A stretch of 64,000 nucleotides of DNA. It comes from Eledone cirrhosa. Lineage: Eukaryota. A model generated the notes under the pieces. It was not told the DNA's origin. It did not search any database and saw only the letters and a program-made list of their open reading frames with translations. The translations under genes and the position numbers were made by a program. The stretch lies in NCBI GenBank assembly GCA_964016885.1, contig OZ024742.1, positions 270,444,001 to 270,508,000 on the forward strand, written 5' to 3'. Shown here in pieces: positions 1,770 through 55,188 of the stretch. Position 1 is the stretch's first letter; each line of letters begins with the position of its first letter.

Positions 1770-2223
1770 ATTCGGGGATTGTAACGTCTAATTACTGTAG
1801 GTTCACCAAAGTGAGCGCTCGTAATTTCAAGTAGGTATACTGTTGCTGTACTAAGCAGAATGTAATCATAATAATAATAGTTGCAATAGGTGTCAGGAAT
1901 ACACTAGGCATATATCAGAAACAATACTGAAGAAAAAGGAAAAATAATAATAATAATAATAAAAAGAACGAGATGATAGATCTTCATTACATTTATTGAG
2001 GCGTGACGGGTGTTTCGTGATTGATCAGTTCAATAAATGTAAATAAGTTCTAACACTTCGTCCTTTTTATTTACTATTATTAGAAATTGGAATAAATGCT
2101 CTGAAATAGCGATATATATGTGAATATAGACATAGAATATTCGAAAATATTCTGTATGTTTATAATAAACATTTTGAAGACCTAATCGCTATAGAATAGA
2201 ATACGTCACGTATTACAATTAGA

Positions 2224-2310
2224 TTCTCGATAAAAGCAAGGGAAGTAATCTACGCGTTTCATTCTTGTTAGAAATCTTCAGGACTACATATCCAGTGCTT
2301 TTATCGAGAA
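2224..2310 (-). ncRNA. Type I hammerhead ribozyme (array 1)
   Basis: Minus strand: GTAGTC-CTGAAGA-TTTCT aaca AGAAT-GAAA-CGCG-TA-GATTAC, enclosed by the perfect 15-bp arms TTCTCGATAAAAGCA/TGCTTTTATCGAGAA. Confidence 0.88.
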
Positions 2311-2533
2311 TGACACAGCTAGAGACTTATAGAATACTTAGCTGTGTACAGGAACTGGTTTGAAAGAGCGGTTGCCGGTCCGGCAGAAATTAGAAATTGG
2401 AATAAATGCTCTGAAATAGCGATATATATGTGAATATAGACATAGAATATTCGAAAATATTCTGTATGTTTATAATAAACATTTTGAAGACCTAATCGCT
2501 ATAGAATAGAATACGTCACGTATTACAATTAGA

Positions 2534-2620
2534 TTCTCGATAAAAGCAAGGGAAGTAATCTACGCGTTTCATTCTTGTTAGAAATCTTCAGGACTACATA
2601 TCCAGTGCTTTTATCGAGAA
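2534..2620 (-). ncRNA. Type I hammerhead ribozyme (array 1)
   Basis: Same sequence as 2224-2310, shifted by 310 bp. Confidence 0.88.
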
Positions 2621-2843
2621 TGACACAGCTAGAGACTTATAGAATACTTAGCTGTGTACAGGAACTGGTTTGAAAGAGCGGTTGCCGGTCCGGCAGAAAT
2701 TAGAAATTGGAATAAATGCTCTGAAATAGCGATATATATGTGAATATAGACATAGAATATTCGAAAATATTCTGTATGTTTATAATAAACATTTTGAAGA
2801 CCTAATCGCTATAGAATAGAATACGTCACGTATTACAATTAGA

Positions 2844-2930
2844 TTCTCGATAAAAGCAAGGGAAGTAATCTACGCGTTTCATTCTTGTTAGAAATCTTCA
2901 GGACTACATATCCAGTGCTTTTATCGAGAA
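2844..2930 (-). ncRNA. Type I hammerhead ribozyme (array 1)
   Basis: Same sequence as 2224-2310, shifted by 620 bp. Confidence 0.88.
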
Positions 2931-3116
2931 TGACACAGCTAGAGACTTATAGAATACTTAGCTGTGTACAGGAACTGGTTTGAAAGAGCGGTTGCCGGTC
3001 CGGCAGAAATTAGAAATTGGAATAAATGCTCTGAAATAGCGATATATATGTGAATATATGTTTATTATAAACATACAGAATATTTTCGAATATTCTATGT
3101 CTATATTTACTATTAT

Positions 3117-3200
<84 letters not shown>

Positions 3201-3727: not shown

Positions 3728-3898
3728 AAAAGGTTTGACCCCGACGTCAGAGCTCAAGCAGTTTCGACGGCAATTTCTGGACCCAGAAATAGCTCTGCCG
3801 TCGGGTCAACCTTTTTCCTATTACCCACTTTACTACCCTAAGTATTGCGTAATCTGGTGCGTTATTGTCCATCTGGTTCCTCTACCACACCTCCTTCG

Positions 3899-25189: not shown

Positions 25190-26460
25190 TAGGAGTTGTG
25201 TTAAGGAGCCAGATGGAACCACAACGTACCAGAATACTTAATACTTACAGTAGTAGAGTGGGCTCAAGCCGTTTCGACGGCTATTTCTGGACTAAATTAG
25301 AATGTTTAGCGTGGTAAATATATAGCCGAACTTTTCAGGGGGTAATTCCTTATATGGGCAGGCTATATTTGTCAAGAGGATTGGTAAACATTTCTCGTAA
25401 ACGCAATTAATTCTATTATGGCAGTGGTTGGCTGAACTTGCCTGTAGAACAATGAGGGAGTGGGTGAAGCCACTAAGGATTGTATATGAAACCAGGCTAG
25501 AGGAAGTAGGCGAAAAGGGATTCTGGAGAAAATAGGTAAGGGACGTTATAGAATAGGTAAATCAATTGAGATTAGAAGATAATAAATAAATAAGAAAAAA
25601 TATATAAAAATATAAAAGTGGATAATAATAAGTGATAAAAAAAACTTTAGAGTTTAAAACAGTTGGTATATTTAGTTGGTGTTGCGTTTTCGGCCAATGC
25701 TATAGAATGGTTAATCCGCTGAGAATAGAAGATATTAAATAAATAAAAAAATGTTTGAAATTATAGAATTGTGTAGTAATAAGTAATAGAGAATCTCTGA
25801 GGTCTAAAACAGCTGCTATAATTAGTTGGTATTCCGTTTTCGGTCAATGCTATCTTTAATTTACTGGGGTGGGGGTACTGAGGTTATAAAGGCTTGATGG
25901 GCAGCCTCGCGATATGCGAAATGGGAAAAAGGAAAAGGAAGAGGATAGGGAGTGGATGGAAGTGATAGGAAGAGACAAAGGGAAGAAGAAAATAGAAAGG
26001 AAAAGAAAAGAGCTAATTCTACCTATGTTAGATGGGGTTTCACCCATCTTGTTCGGTAAGTGGGGAAAAGGAGGATGCTGCAGCCATTTTCTACCCACCC
26101 GGGTCATTAGGAGGTTTGAGGGCGAGATATGTCCTTCGCAATCGGTGTTTGCATGCAGTTACCAGTTCGTCTTTTTTGTTTAGCAGTTGGTCCTTAGAAT
26201 TTGCTGTATAGATATCACTTTCAACGCTTGACCGTCTCCACCCACTCCCTCATAGTTCTACAGGCAAGTTCAGCCACCCACTGCCATAATCACTTAATTG
26301 TCTTTACAAGAAATGTTTACCAATCCTCTTGACAACTACAATCTTCCCATATAAGGAATTACCACATGAAAAGTTCGACTATTTATTTAATACGCTAAAA
26401 ATGCTAAGTTAGTCCATAAATTGCCGTCGAAACGGCTTGAGGTCTGCCGTCGAGCATCAT
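25190..26460 (-). mobile_element. 5'-truncated Penelope-like element with inverted terminal repeat
   Basis: Minus strand NKKDELVTACKHR at about 26110-26185 resembles the PLE C-terminal LNKRSELxxxCRH motif; 25260-25480 is an inverted copy of 26236-26440. Confidence 0.65.
26361..26455 (+). ncRNA. Degenerate hammerhead ribozyme in PLE terminal repeat
   Basis: ACCAC-ATGAAAA-long stem II-GAAA(26429)-CGGC...GCCG-TC. The minus copy at 25261-25345 reads ACCCC-CTGAAAA; other copies give GGGGT after TC. Confidence 0.5.
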
Positions 26461-26466
26461 ATTTTT

Positions 26467-26515
<49 letters not shown>

Positions 26516-26743: not shown

Positions 26744-26866
26744 AACCAGTAAGACCCCGACAGCTGAGCTCAAGCCGTTTCGACGGCTAATTCAGCGTGA
26801 ACAGACTGTTAACTTCTCTCCCTTCTTTCGCCGAACAGTAGTAAGTGACATAGTCATTACATTAAA

Positions 26867-26932
<66 letters not shown>

Positions 26933-27121
26933 ACTTCACTTGTAGTTCTAAACAATCTGTTTTAATTTTATAATATTATGATACTGTCCAGAATTAGCCG
27001 TCGAAACGGCTTGAGCTCAGCTGTCGGGGTCTTACTGGTTCCTATTACCCACTCTACTACCTCAAGTATTGAGTACTTTGGTGCGTTATGGTTCACCTGG
27101 TTCCTTACCACATTTCCTTCG

Positions 27122-27290
<169 letters not shown>

Positions 27291-27409
27291 TATATATATA
27301 TATAAATATAGTTTTGCGAGGTTTTTTATATGAAATCGTGTGTCGAAACAAGATAGACAGACTGAATAAAAATGGCGTAGACATATAATACAACAGGAGG
27401 AAACGATAA

Positions 27410-27453
27410 CACCACTGACGATGTTGCAAATGTGCAACGAAATACTTATGATA
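27410..27453 (+). ncRNA. Hammerhead ribozyme-like motif (extra nucleotide after core)
   Basis: CACCA-CTGACGA-T-GTTGCA aatg TGCAAC-GAAA-TACT-TA-TGATA. Confidence 0.55.
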
Positions 27454-27697
27454 AACTATATATATGTGTTTGTGTCTATATTGTATCTGTATTATTTTTG
27501 ACCGTCGGTCAGTCAATGGCAACATTGAGGACCGAGTAAATTAGATTACCGATATAAAAGACACAGAAGCGAGAAGCGAAAACCAACCAAAGAGTGAGTG
27601 TGTTCTGTTATTAATTCTGGCAATATTACACAAATATGACCCTCCCCAAGTATAACAATATATATATATTTATATAAAGTATATATATATATATAAA

Positions 27698-27875: not shown

Positions 27876-27917
<42 letters not shown>

Positions 27918-28295
27918 CGGTTTTAATGTAATGACTATGTCACTTACTACTGTTCGGCGAAAGAAGGGAGAGAAGTTAACAGTCTGTTCACGCTGATTGG
28001 CGATCATCGGATCCACGCCCCCCTGCCTCCTCCGAAAATTATTGAAGCTGGATTCTTATAGAATTCCAGGAATAATCAGGAGCTGATAATACAGAGCGAT
28101 TGACGGTCCAGCAAAAATTAGGTATTATGATTGGTGCTCTGCAATAGCGATGTATACATGAATGTCTGTATAGTATATTTGGCAATATACCTTATGTTTA
28201 ATTAAAAAATATTCAGAAGACCATACGCTATCAGTTTTAAAGTAGTGACTATGTCACTTCTTTTCGCCGAAAGAAGAGAGAGAAGCTGACAGTCT
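27918..28295 (-). mobile_element. Old relative of the retrozyme unit (about 1.2 units, period about 314 bp)
   Basis: Shares GCTCTG.AATAGCGAT, AGAGCG.TTG.CGGTCC.GCA.AAATTAG and CTTATAGAAT with the 311-bp unit; degenerate HHR CCGATGA..GAACAGACTGTT on the minus strand at about 27975-28015. Confidence 0.6.
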
Positions 28296-35379: not shown

Positions 35380-36615
35380 AGTTTACAATCCTCCGTTCGA
35401 GCTTGCTCACAAAGTCCTATTCCCAGTGGTCAGGGAATCTCTTGCCTTTACCCATATGACGTAAGATTTAACCTCCCACAACCCTGGGAGATTGTCCAAT
35501 GTCACTCGTGCACCACGCGCAACAGGTGCAAGAGAGGAAGGAACTGCTCCAACTTCAACAGCTTCTTCCATCTCTTGCTTCAAACTCACAAGACGAACGT
35601 CGGATTCCTTGCACCAATGACACAGCCCGTCACGGGCGACCGACCCAAAGGAGACATGAAACCAATCGACACGGATGAGTGCCTGGTGATGATCTCCCTC
35701 CTTAGGCATTCGTGGAGAGTCATCATGAGGATTCGGAGGTGAAACCGCACTCCCGTGGCTGAAGCGTTAGCGATTTCAATTGACAGAGCGCCTGACTCGA
35801 GCGATCCACGGGACGTGACCACACTGATCTATTGTTCTTCTCTCGTACTCGGGATACCATTGGAGGGGAACGCAACGTCTACAGACTTATTTGGCCCTTC
35901 CATGGCTCCGAGCTTCAAGGACAATGTCGCCACTTTCTGTGACCATTTGCCCGCGAGCACCTCGACATTCTCCTGCTACCCAATACACCACCCCCAATTA
36001 ACCTACGAAGGCACAACATGTATCCGGAGGGTGAGGTTTATGTGTCTATTTGTGTGCTCGCTTCAAGCGATGCTGTGTTCCGTCCATGTTTTGTCAGCGC
36101 TTCACTTCAAACACCCGGATACCCCTGCCATGATCAGAAACGCTCCAGCCCATGCCAGCAATCACTACCCTGCAGCGTCCGGCAAGGACATTGTAGCCGC
36201 CCTTAGATCTTGTCCGGGTAGTGGCGGAATAGACGGATTGCGCCTCTGTCACCTGATAGACCGCATCTCGTATCACGTGGCGGAAGCAGGGGCCCGATTG
36301 CTCCAGCCATTAATAGTCCTCACCAACTGTTTCCTCCGCATCAACTTGCCTAACTATGCCCACAATATTTTCTTCTAGGCCAGCTTGACCGCCACGAGGA
36401 AGAGTGATGGAGGCGTCCGCCCCATCACGTTGGGTAACTTCTTCCGTAAAAGACGACCTGAACTAAGCCATTTCCAGCTCGGAGCAGAAATAAAGTGGGT
36501 TCGTGAGGCCGCAGCTCATGCGAACGACACCTTATAGAGCACGCGTCTCCCTCGTCATTCGACCTCTTCACGAAGTTGGACGTTACTAGTGCATTCAAGA
36601 GCGTTAACTGGGATA
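35380..36615 (+). mobile_element. Degraded CRE-clade non-LTR retrotransposon, RT N-terminal part
   Basis: SGGIDGLRLCHL...ASLTATRKSDGGVRPITLGNFFR...KLDVTSAFKSV matches CRE-type RT motifs; contains stops and frameshifts. Confidence 0.7.
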
Positions 36616-37376
36616 CCAATCTAAAGATACCAATCCACCGTATGCAGTTCTCTGGTAACAATCAGAGAGATAAAATCAGAGTGTATAGAGGAGCCAGAAC
36701 CAAATGGGAAAAAATGGTAAATAATGACACAAATGGGACCTGCCCCTTATATAGGAGCACATTTTGGAATAGAATAGACAGAACTAGAAATAAGGCTAAT
36801 AGAATAAACTCATGGTATGATAACAATAAATACCAGAGTCTAATGTTCATCGATACAACCCCTAGAGGTGAATTAGTTTACAGATGTAGAAGGGCCCTAG
36901 ATAAACATAAACTCAATATTAAGAAAGTAGAAAGACCAGGTACCTCCATAAAAAGACGTATTAGCAAGACATACCATTTTCAAAGAACTCCCTGTATAGA
37001 TAAGAAATGTATAATCTGTAAATTAAGCCCCCATATTAACTGTAAAACTAAAAATGTAGTATATCGCATAAGATGTACTGAAGGACAATGTAGAGATAAA
37101 AATATAGTGTACATAGGTGAGACAGCTCGTAGCATAGGGGAACGGATAAATGAACACTGGCGAGACTTTCAAGATAAAAAAGAATCATCAATACTCCACC
37201 ATCATGCTAAAATAGAACATAAGGGCAAATTAGAGAACATAGAAATAAAAATAGAATCTACACACAGAAAAGACGCAATGTTTAGACAAATCACAGAGGC
37301 AATAAACATAAATGAATTACAACCAAAATTAAATAGAAAATATGAGTGGAACAGCAACATCACAACTTGCAATTAA
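36576..37376 (+). CDS. Penelope-like element C-terminal ORF: linker and GIY-YIG endonuclease (5'-truncated)
   Basis: PLYRSTFWNR, C..KKCIIC, CKTKNVVYRIRC...VYIGETARSIGERINEH...RQITEAININELQPKLNRKYEW. Open for about 250 codons; the first about 13 codons derive from the CRE element. Confidence 0.88.
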   Translation: MDVTSAFKSVNWDTNLKIPIHRMQFSGNNQRDKIRVYRGARTKWEKMVNNDTNGTCPLYRSTFWNRIDRTRNKANRINSWYDNNKYQSLMFIDTTPRGELVYRCRRALDKHKLNIKKVERPGTSIKRRISKTYHFQRTPCIDKKCIICKLSPHINCKTKNVVYRIRCTEGQCRDKNIVYIGETARSIGERINEHWRDFQDKKESSILHHHAKIEHKGKLENIEIKIESTHRKDAMFRQITEAININELQPKLNRKYEWNSNITTCN

Positions 37377-37829
37377 GGACAAAATGAAAACACACACGCA
37401 CATAGAACAAACACCCAATGAGTAACATGTAAATAAACAAATAAATAAACGAATATAAACACACACAGACACCCGGATGTAACACATGCGCAAACTAAGC
37501 ACACAACACACATACTAAAACAAGATGGCGTGGGACAGAACAAAGGAGAGGCAATAAAAAAACAAACAAAATAATCCCCAGACACTGAAGAGGTCACATA
37601 ATGTGTGACGAAATAACTTTGACAATATATAAACAACCATCTGGTTGTGGAACCAACCAACAACCGGAAATTTATAAATTCCTAAATTTATAAAATTATT
37701 ATAATAAATTGAAGTGAAACAGCTGGTGCGTGTGTTTCTTATTGGCAACATGACCCTCCCAAAGTATAACAATATCGGTTTCAACGCACGTTTTCAGATA
37801 AAGACACTTGCTAAACAAATTCAGAAACG

Positions 37830-37830
<1 letters not shown>
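37377..37830 (+). repeat. Penelope 3' terminal repeat (pLTR) with HHR-like motif at 37579-37625
   Basis: CTGAAGA-G-GTCACA taatg TGTGAC-GAAA-TAAC-TT-TGACAA; a homologous solo copy lies at 48675-49025 on the minus strand. Confidence 0.65.
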
Positions 37831-37861
<31 letters not shown>

Positions 37862-37866
<5 letters not shown>

Positions 37867-38517
37867 GAAATGGTGCTCTGAAATAGCGATATATATATGA
37901 ATGTATATATAGTGTATTTTGCAATATACTGTATGCTTAATTAAAAGGATTTCGAAGACCTTACCCTATTGTTTTAGAGTAGTGACAGCCTTACTCACTT
38001 TAAATTTTCCACAAACAGGTGGAGTACTTTGCTTGGATAAGTACCAAAAAGTACGAAACAGAGAGCTCTGTCAGCTTTATCTCCCCTGTTTGCTGAACAT
38101 TTAAAGTAAGTGAGACTGTCACTACTCTAAAACAATAGCGTAAGGTCTTAGAAATGATTTTAATTAAGCATACAGTGTATTTCAAAATACAATATATATA
38201 TACATTCATAAATATATCGCTATTTCACAGCACCAATTCTAATTTTCAATTTCTGCTCTAACCGGCAACCGCTCTGTATAATCAGTTCCTGATTATTAGT
38301 AGAATTCTATAAGAATCAAACATTCGTGATTTTCAGCAACAGGTGGAGTTCTTGGCTTTGATATGTACCAATCAATACGAAACAGAGCTCTGTCCGCTCT
38401 CCTGTTTGCTGAAAATTTAAATTAAGTGAGACTGTCACTACTCTGACCAATAGCGAAAAGTCTTCGAAATGCTTTTAATTAAGCATACAGTGTATTGCAA
38501 AATACACTATAAATCCA

Positions 38518-38520
<3 letters not shown>
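37862..38520 (+). mobile_element. Old retrozyme relative: about 324-bp tandem with inverted 5' segment and two decayed HHRs
   Basis: Shares CGCTATTTCA.AGCA, AATTTCTGC...ACCGGCAACCGCTCT, CAGTTCCTG and ATTCTATAAG with the 311-bp unit. GAAA-CAGAG(AG)CTCTG-TC at 38055 and 38379. 37862-38020 is inverted relative to 38085-38245. Confidence 0.7.
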
Positions 38521-38572
<52 letters not shown>

Positions 38573-38574
38573 AA

Positions 38575-38608
<34 letters not shown>

Positions 38609-38814
38609 AAATATGTATATCTAAATATATATATATGAATGTATATATAGTGTATTTTGCAATATATATATTTATATATACAATTTACTTTTAGTAGTTA
38701 CAGATTTTGATATACCAGATTTTCCAGTTTAAAATCCCCTCCCAGTATCATTTTCCTGATGTCAACACTGCTACACATAACATTTACTCAATAATGGATC
38801 CATATCATATTATT

Positions 38815-47114: not shown

Positions 47115-47168
<54 letters not shown>

Positions 47169-47639
47169 AAGTATGACCCCGACGGCAGAGCTCAAGCCGT
47201 CGAAACGGCTTCAGGTCTGCCGTCGGGGACATACTTTTTCCTATTACCCACTCTAATACACTAAGTATTGAGGACACTGGTGCGTTATGGTCCATCTAGT
47301 TCCTTACCACAACTCCTTCGTTATATATATATATATATATACTTAAATATATACGTATACATATATGTGTGAGTGTTTATACCTCTGTGCGTGTGTGGAC
47401 ACAAATAGTGAATGCATTTCTAATCGAGTCATAAATGCGTGCGCGTATGATTTTGTTATTGGTATATATATATAATTGAATATATGTGAGGGATGAATAC
47501 CGATAGAAGTATACGTGAGTTCGAATTGTAAATGACCAAGTTAGCTAGGTTGAAAAAAAACTAATTGTAGAAGACTATTTTGAGTTTCTTATATATATAT
47601 ATATAGCAATCGACTTTCGTCAAATCGGACCGAGTAAAC

Positions 47640-47800: not shown

Positions 47801-48020
47801 ATATATATATATATATGTTTGTGTCTATATTGTATCCGTATTTTTGACCGCTGGTCAGTCAATGATAACATTGAGGACTGAATAAATTAAATTAACCGAT
47901 ATAAAGAACACAGAAGCGAAAACCAACCAAACAGCGAGTGTGTTCTGTTATTAATTCTGGCAATATTATTACACAAATATGGCCCTCCCCAAGTATATAT
48001 GTATATATATATATTTACAT

Positions 48021-48674: not shown

Positions 48675-49025
48675 TTTTTGAATTAGTTTTGCGAGATTTC
48701 GTAAGTGTTTTGAAATGGATATTATTATAATTTAGGAGGATAATGTTGTCAATAAAAACACACGCACATTTTTGCTTTCACTTCAATTTATTGTAAGTTC
48801 CCGGCTGGTTGGTTGGTTCAATAACCGGAAGGTTGTTTATATATGGTGAAATCACTTTTGTCACAGAGGTCTGTGACCTCCTCAGTGACAAGGTTTTTAT
48901 TTTGTGTCTCTCCGTTGTTCAATCCTACACCATCTTGACTTTGTGTGTTATGTGTTGTGTGTTTAGATTACGCATGTTTTACATCTGCGCGCACACGCCC
49001 GAGCGTGTGTGTCTTTGTGTTTGTT
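48675..49025 (-). repeat. Solo Penelope pLTR homologous to 37440-37830, with HHR-like motif at 48844-48891
   Basis: Minus strand TTGTCA-CTGAGGA-G-GTCACAG..CTGTGAC-AAAA; flanked by (TA)n. Confidence 0.65.
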
Positions 49026-50932: not shown

Positions 50933-51501
<569 letters not shown>

Positions 51502-51504
<3 letters not shown>

Positions 51505-54500
51505 GTCTCTAGCTGTGTCATTCTCGATAAAAGCACTGGATATGTAGTCCTGATGAATTCTAACAAGAATGAAACGCGTAGACTTACTTCCCTTGCTTTT
51601 ATCGAGAATCTAATTGTAATACGTGACGTATTCTATTCTATAGCGATTAGGTCTTCAAAATGTTTATTATAAACATACAGAATATTTTCGAATATTCTAT
51701 GTCTATATTCACATATATATCGCTATTTCAGAGCATTTATTCCAATTTCTAATTTCTGCCGGACCGGCAACCGCTCTTTCAAACCAGTTCCTGTACACAG
51801 CTAAGTATTCTATAAGTCTCTAGCTGTGTCATTCTCGATAAAAGCACTGGATATGTAGTCCTGATGAATTCTAACAAGAATGAAACGCGTAGACTTACTT
51901 CCCTTGCTTTTATCGAGAATCTAATTGTAATACGTGACGTATTCTATTCTATAGCGATTAGGTCTTCAAAATGTTTATTATAAACATACAGAATATTTTC
52001 GAATATTCTATGTCTATATTCACATATATATCGCTATTTCAGAGCATTTATTCCAATTTCTAATTTCTGCCGGACCGGCAACCGCTCTTTCAAACCAGTT
52101 CCTGTACACAGCTAAGTATTCTATAAGTCTCTAGCTGTGTCATTCTCGATAAAAGCACTGGATATGTAGTCCTGATGAATTCTAACAAGAATGAAACGCG
52201 TAGACTTACTTCCCTTGCTTTTATCGAGAATCTAATTGTAATACGTGACGTATTCTATTCTATAGCGATTAGGTCTTCAAAATGTTTATTATAAACATAC
52301 AGAATATTTTCGAATATTCTATGTCTATATTCACATATATATCGCTATTTCAGAGCATTTATTCCAATTTCTAATTTCTGCCGGACCGGCAACCGCTCTT
52401 TCAAACCAGTTCCTGTACACAGCTAAGTATTCTATAAGTCTCTAGCTGTGTCATTCTCGATAAAAGCACTGGATATGTAGTCCTGATGAATTCTAACAAG
52501 AATGAAACGCGTAGACTTACTTCCCTTGCTTTTATCGAGAATCTAATTGTAATACGTGACGTATTCTATTCTATAGCGATTAGGTCTTCAAAATGTTTAT
52601 TATAAACATACAGAATATTTTCGAATATTCTATGTCTATATTCACATATATATCGCTATTTCAGAGCATTTATTCCAATTTCTAATTTCTGCCGGACCGG
52701 CAACCGCTCTTTCAAACCAGTTCCTGTACACAGCTAAGTATTCTATAAGTCTCTAGCTGTGTCATTCTCGATAAAAGCACTGGATATGTAGTCCTGATGA
52801 ATTCTAACAAGAATGAAACGCGTAGACTTACTTCCCTTGCTTTTATCGAGAATCTAATTGTAATACGTGACGTATTCTATTCTATAGCGATTAGGTCTTC
52901 AAAATGTTTATTATAAACATACAGAATATTTTCGAATATTCTATGTCTATATTCACATATATATCGCTATTTCAGAGCATTTATTCCAATTTCTAATTTC
53001 TGCCGGACCGGCAACCGCTCTTTCAAACCAGTTCCTGTACACAGCTAAGTATTCTATAAGTCTCTAGCTGTGTCATTCTCGATAAAAGCACTGGATATGT
53101 AGTCCTGATGAATTCTAACAAGAATGAAACGCGTAGACTTACTTCCCTTGCTTTTATCGAGAATCTAATTGTAATACGTGACGTATTCTATTCTATAGCG
53201 ATTAGGTCTTCAAAATGTTTATTATAAACATACAGAATATTTTCGAATATTCTATGTCTATATTCACATATATATCGCTATTTCAGAGCATTTATTCCAA
53301 TTTCTAATTTCTGCCGGACCGGCAACCGCTCTTTCAAACCAGTTCCTGTACACAGCTAAGTATTCTATAAGTCTCTAGCTGTGTCATTCTCGATAAAAGC
53401 ACTGGATATGTAGTCCTGATGAATTCTAACAAGAATGAAACGCGTAGACTTACTTCCCTTGCTTTTATCGAGAATCTAATTGTAATACGTGACGTATTCT
53501 ATTCTATAGCGATTAGGTCTTCAAAATGTTTATTATAAACATACAGAATATTTTCGAATATTCTATGTCTATATTCACATATATATCGCTATTTCAGAGC
53601 ATTTATTCCAATTTCTAATTTCTGCCGGACCGGCAACCGCTCTTTCAAACCAGTTCCTGTACACAGCTAAGTATTCTATAAGTCTCTAGCTGTGTCATTC
53701 TCGATAAAAGCACTGGATATGTAGTCCTGATGAATTCTAACAAGAATGAAACGCGTAGACTTACTTCCCTTGCTTTTATCGAGAATCTAATTGTAATACG
53801 TGACGTATTCTATTCTATAGCGATTAGGTCTTCAAAATGTTTATTATAAACATACAGAATATTTTCGAATATTCTATGTCTATATTCACATATATATCGC
53901 TATTTCAGAGCATTTATTCCAATTTCTAATTTCTGCCGGACCGGCAACCGCTCTTTCAAACCAGTTCCTGTACACAGCTAAGTATTCTATAAGTCTCTAG
54001 CTGTGTCATTCTCGATAAAAGCACTGGATATGTAGTCCTGATGAATTCTAACAAGAATGAAACGCGTAGACTTACTTCCCTTGCTTTTATCGAGAATCTA
54101 ATTGTAATACGTGACGTATTCTATTCTATAGCGATTAGGTCTTCAAAATGTTTATTATAAACATACAGAATATTTTCGAATATTCTATGTCTATATTCAC
54201 ATATATATCGCTATTTCAGAGCATTTATTCCAATTTCTAATTTCTGCCGGACCGGCAACCGCTCTTTCAAACCAGTTCCTGTACACAGCTAAGTATTCTA
54301 TAAGTCTCTAGCTGTGTCATTCTCGATAAAAGCACTGGATATGTAGTCCTGATGAATTCTAACAAGAATGAAACGCGTAGACTTACTTCCCTTGCTTTTA
54401 TCGAGAATCTAATTGTAATACGTGACGTATTCTATTCTATAGCGATTAGGTCTTCAAAATGTTTATTATAAACATACAGAATATTTTCGAATATTCTATG

Positions 54501-55128
54501 TCTATATTCACATATATATCGCTATTTCAGAGCATTTATTCCAATTTCTAATTTCTGCCGGACCGGCAACCGCTCTTTCAAACCAGTTCCTGTACACAGC
54601 TAAGTATTCTATAAGTCTCTAGCTGTGTCATTCTCGATAAAAGCACCGGATATGTAGTCCTGATGAATTCTAACAAGAATGAAACGCGTAGACTTACTTC
54701 CCTTGCTTTTATCGAGAATCTAATTGTAATACGTGACGTATTCTATTCTATAGCGATTAGGTCTTCAAAATGTTTATTATAAACATACAGAATATTTTCG
54801 AATATTCTATGTCTATATTCACATATATATCGCTATTTCAGAGCATTTATTCCAATTTCTAATTTCTGCCGGACCGGCAACCGCTCTTTCAAACCAGTTC
54901 CTGTACACAGCTAAGTATTCTATAAGTCTCTAGCTGTGTCATTCTCGATAAAAGCACTGGATATGTAGTCCTGATGAATTCTAACAAGAATGAAACGCGT
55001 AGACTTACTTCCCTTGCTTTTATCGAGAATCTAATTGTAATACGTGACGTATTCTATTCTATAGCGATTAGGTCTTCAAAATGTTTATTATAAACATACA
55101 GAATATTTTCGAATATTCTATGTCTATA

Positions 55129-55131
<3 letters not shown>
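51502..55131 (+). mobile_element. Retrozyme-like tandem array 2: about 11.7 x 311-bp units, 12 HHRs
   Basis: TAAGTCTCTAG at 51502, 51813, 52124 and onward (period 311). CTGATGA cores at 51550+311n up to 54971. The only difference noticed is T>C at 54647. Flanked by (TA)n. Confidence 0.92.
51521..51608 (+). ncRNA. Type I hammerhead ribozyme (first of 12 in array 2)
   Basis: TTCTCGATAAAAGCA ctggatat GTAGTC-CTGATGA-ATTCT aaca AGAAT-GAAA-CGCG-TA^GACTTAC ttccct TGCTTTTATCGAGAA; predicted cleavage after 51580. Confidence 0.92.

Positions 55132-55188
<57 letters not shown>

Follow-up and report, generated by a model that had tools for sequence, protein, structure and literature searches.

The closest described systems are the metazoan non-LTR retrozymes, which, in the available text of their description, form tandem units of 150–450 bp with low GC contents, each unit carrying one canonical-size type I hammerhead ribozyme with a palindromic helix III (Cervera and de la Peña 2020, PMC7229834). 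Several subfamilies are present per genome, they co-occur with Penelope elements, and both cleavage and circular RNA were demonstrated. Their mobilisation by Penelope elements was proposed in the same work (Cervera 2020, PMC7229834). A 2020 review described metazoan retrozymes as having no conserved motif that points to the mobiliser (PMC7761336). Li et al. (2026, bioRxiv 10.64898/2026.07.22.740005) also proposed that Penelope machinery mobilises animal retrozymes; the accessible part of that preprint relied on co-occurrence and pLTR phylogeny in vertebrates, and one of nine tested Xenopus retrozyme dimers cleaved. Penelope-like elements are described, in the text available, as partial tandems with an inverted 5′-truncated copy, a tail of 30–40 bp and a bias for microsatellites (Craig 2021, PMC8557442), and for one of them an overlap of 15 bp at the inversion, a tail of 31 bp and activity in trans are given (PMC3846280, in the portion available).

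The canonical hammerhead core, CUGANGA, contains a C3–G8 pair. U3–A8 has been reported as a natural covariation that is active in vitro (Perreault 2011, PMC3088659), and about 1,300 minimal hammerhead motifs with U3–A8 were reported in the Penelope elements of Schistosoma (Cervera 2014, PMC4209133), as far as the accessible sections of these papers show. When a type III hammerhead was mutated pairwise, the 3–8 pair was rescued by a G–C swap alone, and activity was low in the remaining single and double mutants (PMC9901934, text available in part). This indicated that the activity of U3–A8 depends on context. The single change CUGANAA was inactive in one study (PMC8490949). No report of a U3–A8 core in a retrozyme was found in the openly readable literature searched, and the accessible portions of PMC6155905, PMC6765202, PMC3884650 and PMC7936874 contained nothing on a core swap.

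The DNA analysed here, referred to as the window, is a stretch of 64,000 nucleotides from Eledone cirrhosa. It is AT-rich and microsatellite-rich, and it carries three subfamilies of one non-coding repeat, named A, B, and C. The segment 37862–38521 is a decayed insertion of the multi-copy retrozyme subfamily A. Read directly from the sequence, it consists of an inverted 5′ part followed by 1.6 units, the unit being about 320 bp long. The hammerhead modules (38005–38099 and 38329–38416) lie 324 bp apart at the 5′ arm, the predicted cleavage sites (after 38072 and 38394) are 322 nt apart, and the backbones of the two units are offset by 315 bp (38135 vs 38450). The two partial units are 83% alike over 212 bp; Tandem Repeats Finder, run on the window, did not list this tandem. 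The tandem of about 324 bp described by the original prediction was thus present, with only ~1.6 units. The prediction had also placed a 5′ inversion at the ribozyme arms. Self-comparison agreed, as 37862–38019 (minus strand) is the reverse complement of the backbone and 3′ arm, with its junction in the 15-bp self-complementary arm 38005–38019.

On the left, the insertion adjoins a (TA)n target at 37832–37862, and on the right a (TA)n-rich target at 38521–38680 (both from Tandem Repeats Finder). The outer end of the inverted part matches unit position 38243–38244, ~35 nt past the right end. The 5′ arm of copy 1 (38005–38019, plus strand, as are all following features of this insertion) also forms the inversion junction and can be read in either orientation; after read-majority letters were applied, it formed a 15-bp stem with 38085–38099. 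The type I hammerhead of copy 1 (38020–38084; from sequence, a weak Rfam match and reads) has helix I at 38031–33/38073–75, the core TGGATAA at 38034–38040 (family TTGATAA), helix II at 38041–44/38051–54 with loop CAAAAA, GAAA at 38055–58 and a palindromic helix III, and cleavage is predicted after 38072, at GUC. Its helix II is intact, its helix III is 2 nt longer, and it has AGC. The module of copy 2 (38329–38416; from sequence and reads, z −5.2) has the core TTGATAT at 38358–38364 (family TTGATAA) and a predicted cleavage site after 38394. In this copy, helix II has a single mismatch, CAGAGCTCTG and CGC are present, and helix I has lost 6 nt through a private deletion. Between the modules, the non-coding backbone (38100–38328) comprises small hairpins kept in all three subfamilies, an internal TA run at ~38209–38217 and a conserved block at 38261–38291. 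A partial backbone (38417–38521) ends at ATTCA, where the internal TA run of the unit meets the genomic (TA)n, and this end is ambiguous to ~38530.

Judged from its sequence, the insertion is consistent with the metazoan non-LTR retrozymes on the testable features. Its units are head-to-tail, 315–324 bp long and multi-copy, and its GC content (0.333) is below 50%. The longest Met-started frames are 69 aa on the minus strand and 35 aa on the plus strand; the frame search found no long ORF in the insertion, hence no RT plus GIY-YIG ORF, and no LTR pair was evident at 37862–38521 in the sequence and self-comparison. Both copies have the type I topology (helices I–III, GAAA, NUH), with private breaks corrected by the read majority. 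One canonical-size hammerhead per unit with palindromic helix III, several subfamilies in one genome and co-occurrence with Penelope elements are all shared with the retrozymes in the available text of PMC7229834. It differs from them in its UUGAUAA core and in the 12-nt palindrome of helix III, and whereas cleavage and circles were demonstrated there, subfamily A is known here from sequence and folding estimates. The compensatory 3–8 swap is the same as in natural U3–A8 hammerheads. However, those, in the accessible text, occur as scattered examples or as minimal motifs that are mostly solitary and linked to Penelope pLTRs (Schistosoma Cercyon; PMC3088659, PMC4209133), whereas in subfamily A the type I hammerhead is complete, and the tandem non-coding element that carries it has C3–G8 sisters on the same backbone.

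The sister relationship is carried by the backbone. Aligned with the 311-bp unit of subfamily B, the A backbone gave a local score of 125, compared with 19.5 ± 2.9 (maximum 32) for shuffled sequences, none of 500 scoring as well. The original prediction of a sister lineage sharing its backbone with the 311-bp unit was supported by this result, and the lack of significance that it had named as grounds for rejection was not found. The pattern ACCGGCAACCGCTCT-N7-CAGTTCCTG matched exactly at 38261 and occurred 17 times in the window with at most three mismatches, against 0 in 100 shuffles. Globally, A and B were identical in 216 of 326 columns, A and C in 226 of 324, and B and C in 199 of 319. The hammerhead modules of A and B scored 17, which 141 of 500 shuffles equalled, so that plain local alignment placed them at chance, and the module is as different-looking from the 311-bp one as predicted. 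The module of C against A copy 1 scored 34, which was significant (shuffle maximum 25).

Subfamily B is represented by an array of 11.7 units of 311 bp (51094–55132, plus strand) with the canonical CTGATGA core, minimal helix III and an inverted 5′ part (51094–51504). A second B insertion (2079–3107, minus strand) has 3.2 inverted units plus ~50 bp in forward orientation and is flanked by a 16-bp direct repeat (2068–2083 and 3104–3119). It consists mostly of the inverted part; its core is the variant CTGAAGA, its helix II is mismatched at the base, and it shows three differences from the 51-kb array. Copies of A are 87–90% identical to one another (166/190, 142/158 and 104/119), whereas nine of ten other full units of the 311-bp array equal its first unit and one differs by a single base. 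This indicated that the A insertion is older than the array. Greater age, as had been claimed, was therefore borne out for 37862–38521 relative to the 311-bp array, and not for the family as a whole.

Subfamily C is a decayed stretch of 1.2 units (27915–28295, minus strand) without inversion and with different ends. Its core is CCGATGA at 28010, in which C3 and G8 are kept. It has loop 2 (CAATCA) in common with A copy 2, and its helix II and arms differ. The fragment 26792–26875 is an inverted local duplicate of this subfamily. Contigs with C-like arms and T at core position 3 represented further subfamilies, and ~100 reads from two starts had a backbone intermediate between A and C. Two runs under other organism labels (X4 and X6; other species or mixed samples) contained pieces of both retrozyme families, and in both, the B-like backbone was matched by a contig of 340 bases whose ends join to give a period of 311 nt. 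Scans with the backbone-block and variant-core patterns gave no match in viral contigs and none in metagenome contigs. Rfam, applied to the whole window, returned no hammerhead among 65 matches (E up to 1), the intact 311-bp array included. It missed that array and gave only weak HH9 matches in narrow scans (Hammerhead_HH9 for copy 1: 17.3 bits, E 0.31, below the gathering threshold of 52), and was thus uninformative here.

Reads of four of 18 listed runs were aligned to 37980–38480 at 80% likeness. Run X16 comprises raw reads of a reduced-representation library with the same species label (4794 reads aligned to the locus), and X1 comprises contigs that may be from the window's own sample (2882 contigs). 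The loose ends of X16 were set aside, as 94% of its aligned reads continue into unlike sequence, many ending at restriction-type sites, and summed contig depth was not taken as copy number. Before correction, the two cores, TGGATAA and TTGATAT, had T3 and A8 in common. The reads replaced one base in each copy: 38035 G>T in 458 of 468 X16 reads (74 starts; 48 X1 contigs agreed at full depth) and 38364 T>A in 270 of 280 (30 starts; all 25 X1 contigs). Both copies thereby converged on TTGATAA. Among the 40 of 130 difference rows listed, each reaching ~70% or more in some run, none altered positions 3 or 8, and a large C3–G8 minority may exist among the reads in view of that 40 of 130. The X1 loose ends behind 38339 had the consensus GCT-TTGATAA-GTAC (28 contigs, agreement 0.75, median length 19), the core part of which rests on at most half of the contigs, and T was found at core position 3 in all three listed X1 contig inserts spanning it. 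The ribozyme motif first proposed was a composite of both copies, and read majorities restored its remaining parts. In helix II, G stands for A at 38375 (249/279); in helix I, A stands for C at 38395 (257/268) and bases are inserted at 38396–7; the arm is restored at 38010–11 (67/81). The head-to-tail joint 38336>38012 was present in 117 X16 reads with 15 starts, which indicated that the tandem form occurs elsewhere.

The family core TTGATAA is a compensatory U3–A8 swap of the C3–G8 pair. It fails the canonical CUGANGA descriptor and keeps the Watson-Crick 3–8 pair as U–A. The original prediction held that a consensus would restore CTGATGA and that a consensus lacking the CUGANGA core would count against it. 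Taken literally, the reads gave that adverse result, yet TTGATAA is a known compensatory core and not decay. The chance of two changes hitting the single compensable core pair was roughly 1% (1 of 55 position pairs × 1/3 to 0.6). CpG decay was considered as the cause of T3 and A8 and was rejected from the sequence context, as neither change is at a CpG. As B and C both keep C3 and G8, U3–A8 would by parsimony be derived in the A lineage, the state of C being read from one decayed copy; one X1 contig with C-like arms has T3.

The helices of A and B were compared after four read-majority letters had been applied, in a register that was chosen from structure and so favours the numbers somewhat. 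All 24 pairs (15 in the arm, three in helix I, four in helix II, one in helix III and the 3–8 pair) were kept: 11 were identical, 13 were changed on both sides, ten of these by transitions, and none was broken. Purine/pyrimidine class matched at 24 of 28 independent positions (p 0.00016) and base identity at 14 of 28 (p 0.01); raw copy 1, without read letters, gave 23/28 and 15/28, respectively. In the arm, the class match was 13/15 in this register and 8–10 when slid, while identity stayed at 7 at two slid positions. Helix III, which extended from a 6-nt to a 12-nt palindrome, was the sole helix changed in length. This comparison shows that the helices of A and B diverged by compensatory change instead of replacement, and the claim that all ribozyme helices had been replaced was not upheld. 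Two backbone hairpins fold in most copies of A, B, and C despite changed sequence, and a third folds in A and C, not in B. Among the reads, helix III was found in short and long forms, with a 2-nt deletion in 298 of 520 reads.

Folding was modelled with ViennaRNA in two dimensions, a model that excludes tertiary contacts, magnesium and dimer loop costs, and the explanation drawn from it is post hoc. In these models, the strand entering the core paired with the 5′ half of helix III and formed a competing helix. Placing C3–G8 into the A background widened the gap to the hammerhead fold by 1.6–3.0 kcal/mol in six of six contexts. A rough estimate by parts favoured the double hammerhead of the A dimer by 5.3–6.8 kcal/mol with U3–A8 and by 0.2–3.5 kcal/mol with C3–G8, and for the B dimer the order was reversed (4.8 kcal/mol with C3–G8 vs 0.7 with U3–A8). 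The models thus suggest that the core pair present in each family is the one with which a misfold is avoided. The majority A monomer, with the short helix III (298/520 reads), had a predicted hammerhead fold probability of about 0.5%, and such a trapped monomer could represent either a control that is off as a monomer and on as a dimer, or a poor ribozyme.

The ends of the insertions followed a common pattern. The A insertion and both B insertions share the right end, just before the internal TA run of the unit, and their inverted left ends lie further along the unit, by 35 nt (51094–55132), 44 nt (2079–3107) and ~35 nt (A). Three of the four backbone-family insertions in the window thus have a partial tandem, an inverted 5′ copy and a tail, and two of these three are in (TA)n; subfamily C breaks the pattern. 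The 16-bp direct repeat of 2079–3107 occurs nowhere else in the window and has 4- and 5-nt microhomology to the unit, and any target duplication of A is masked by (TA)n. A transition from CATTCA into (TA)n was also present in 16 X1 contigs. The naive uniform-end probability of the shared ends, about 1e-5, overstates the case, since two of the insertions are of one family and A/U-rich sites bias ends. The proposal that the shared backbone blocks serve as cis signals for mobilisation is plausible, as the insertion ends cluster there. At 38200–38220, ACATT and the TA run at the priming site resemble the TATA/initiator-like pair described in a rotifer Penelope pLTR (PMC3846280), a possible promoter.

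Fixed insertion ends with a 5′ inversion and tail are not described for the retrozymes in the available text of PMC7229834, and no paper on twin priming in retrozymes was found in the openly readable literature searched. Compared with Penelope-like elements and pLTRs (PMC8557442, PMC3846280, as far as available), the partial tandem, inverted 5′-truncated copy, tail and microsatellite target are common with A, and variable target duplication may be common to them and to the retrozyme insertions here. However, A has no RT/endonuclease ORF, no detected similarity to neighbouring pLTRs, and a canonical-size instead of a minimal hammerhead. Whereas the evidence of Li et al. (2026), in its accessible part, is co-occurrence and phylogeny, the evidence here is the structure of the insertion ends. 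Their geometry would fit two target strands priming on hammerhead-sense RNA, and the A insertion was likely pasted in by a Penelope-type retrotransposon.

Taken as a whole, 37862–38521 is probably best explained as a decayed insertion of a multi-copy U3–A8 type I retrozyme, likely copied into (TA)n by a Penelope-type RT acting in trans. In this scheme, GUC would be the site at which tandem transcripts cut themselves, probably after dimerising through the 12-nt palindromic helix III, and the resulting monomers of ~322 nt would be circularised. Two A/U-rich sites of the hammerhead-sense RNA, separated by ~35–44 nt, would then serve both nicked target strands for priming. Microhomology, in this insertion the 15-bp arm, would link the two cDNAs and give a tandem with a 5′ inversion. 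More speculatively, U3–A8 may have been fixed because C3 would extend the competing helix formed with the long helix III. A joint proposal going further is tentative, and we regard it as possible but doubtful: that the sister retrozymes use opposite core pairs because each misfolds in the background of the other, that the trap helix keeps the U3–A8 monomer circle switched off and confines cleavage to the dimer, and that the two priming sites 35–44 nt apart are a cis signal for Penelope-type twin priming on the circle.

Three other explanations were weighed. A canonical CUGAUGA family whose core decayed at this locus, with helices swapped wholesale, would account for the chance-level local alignment of the A and B modules and for the C3 and G8 kept in the related subfamily C, and the difference rows listed were 40 of 130. 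However, T3 and A8 are in both copies and no listed row alters them, whereas the private core changes were corrected in 96–98% of reads; the contig loose ends read TTGATAA, and the helix differences are in-register compensatory changes. These results largely refute the decay explanation already, and we consider it very improbable. It is somewhat less improbable, although still unlikely, that the U3–A8 hammerhead is dead or nearly dead and that the family spread as a passenger of read-through tandem transcripts without cleavage. In its favour, swaps other than G–C had low activity in a type III hammerhead (PMC9901934, text available in part), the trap helix is predicted to dominate in the A monomer, and eight of nine Xenopus dimers did not cleave in the accessible part of Li 2026. 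Against a dead ribozyme, U3–A8 hammerheads are natural and active in vitro in the available text of PMC3088659 (Perreault 2011). In the read majority, the remaining core bases and the helices are also unbroken, the two changes compensate each other exactly, and the rough dimer estimate favours the hammerhead by 5.3–6.8 kcal/mol.

Inversions at the 5′ end with microhomology are a feature of LINE-1 as well. An active U3–A8 retrozyme could thus have been moved by LINE-type twin priming, or by DNA-level recombination between (TA)n tracts; no pLTR homology was found in the window, A/U-rich microhomology alone could bias the ends (five TATA sites per unit), and the sample is three insertions, two of one family. 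However, there is no poly(A) tail, (TA)n tracts of the window also carry Penelope-type 3′ ends, the 16-bp flanking repeat favours target-primed insertion over recombination, and the 35–44 nt offset of the ends matches the Penelope tail in the available text of Craig 2021 (PMC8557442). Movement by these routes is therefore an improbable account, ranking between the two above, and copying by a Penelope-type RT is the reading that we prefer.

A multi-copy UUGAUAA family would be missed by retrozyme surveys if their descriptor fixes CUGANGA, and standard ribozyme searches would probably miss it. If the joint reading of misfold, dimer and priming is true, CUGANGA-based surveys would overlook entire U3–A8 retrozyme families. 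The three subfamilies are natural material for following the exchange of a catalytic base pair and for asking which of the single intermediates is viable, and the end positions shared with a Penelope-type tail would offer a concrete mobiliser signal, where none was stated in PMC7761336.

Adjoining the left (TA)n, there was a 5′-truncated Penelope-like element (36675–37831, plus strand; from ORF comparison and motifs), which comprises a C-terminal GIY-YIG ORF to 37376 and then a pLTR-like 3′ end, and it ends at the same (TA)n that borders the A insertion. Of 328 candidates, six RT/GIY-YIG proteins matched the ORF (E 6e-14 to 2.7e-6). The endonuclease motifs are preserved in it, as is an upstream CX4CxxC, an arrangement consistent with the Neptune-type layout in the available text of Craig 2021 (PMC8557442). 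Pfam gave only a weak RVT_1 match (E 0.011) on the neighbouring ORF. BLAST at E 1e-3 found no match of units A, B, and C to the pLTRs 37376–37831 and 27312–27660 of the window, and with no detectable sequence similarity to the retrozymes, the adjacency may reflect only a shared target. A minimal hammerhead-like motif, CTGAAGA, at 37585 and another motif at 27415 were seen by eye, and an automated scan did not recover them. A short RT-like stretch at 36507–36620 (RVT_1, E 0.011) lies in frame upstream of the Penelope-like ORF and is possibly another retroelement interrupted by the Penelope piece.

The pLTR-like pieces at 48675–48985 (minus strand), 27312–27657 and 47817–47997, together with 36675–37831, end in (TA)n and have a common short 3′ motif. 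The tail on the pLTR fragment 27312–27657 was equalled in 54 of 2000 shuffles, a weak support. Another (TA)n-associated repeat with palindromic ends was found in both orientations at 26400–26470, 26984–27122, 47166–47320, 3742–3782 and 25263–25303. A two-copy tandem of 150 bp with 79% matches was located at 25547–25853.
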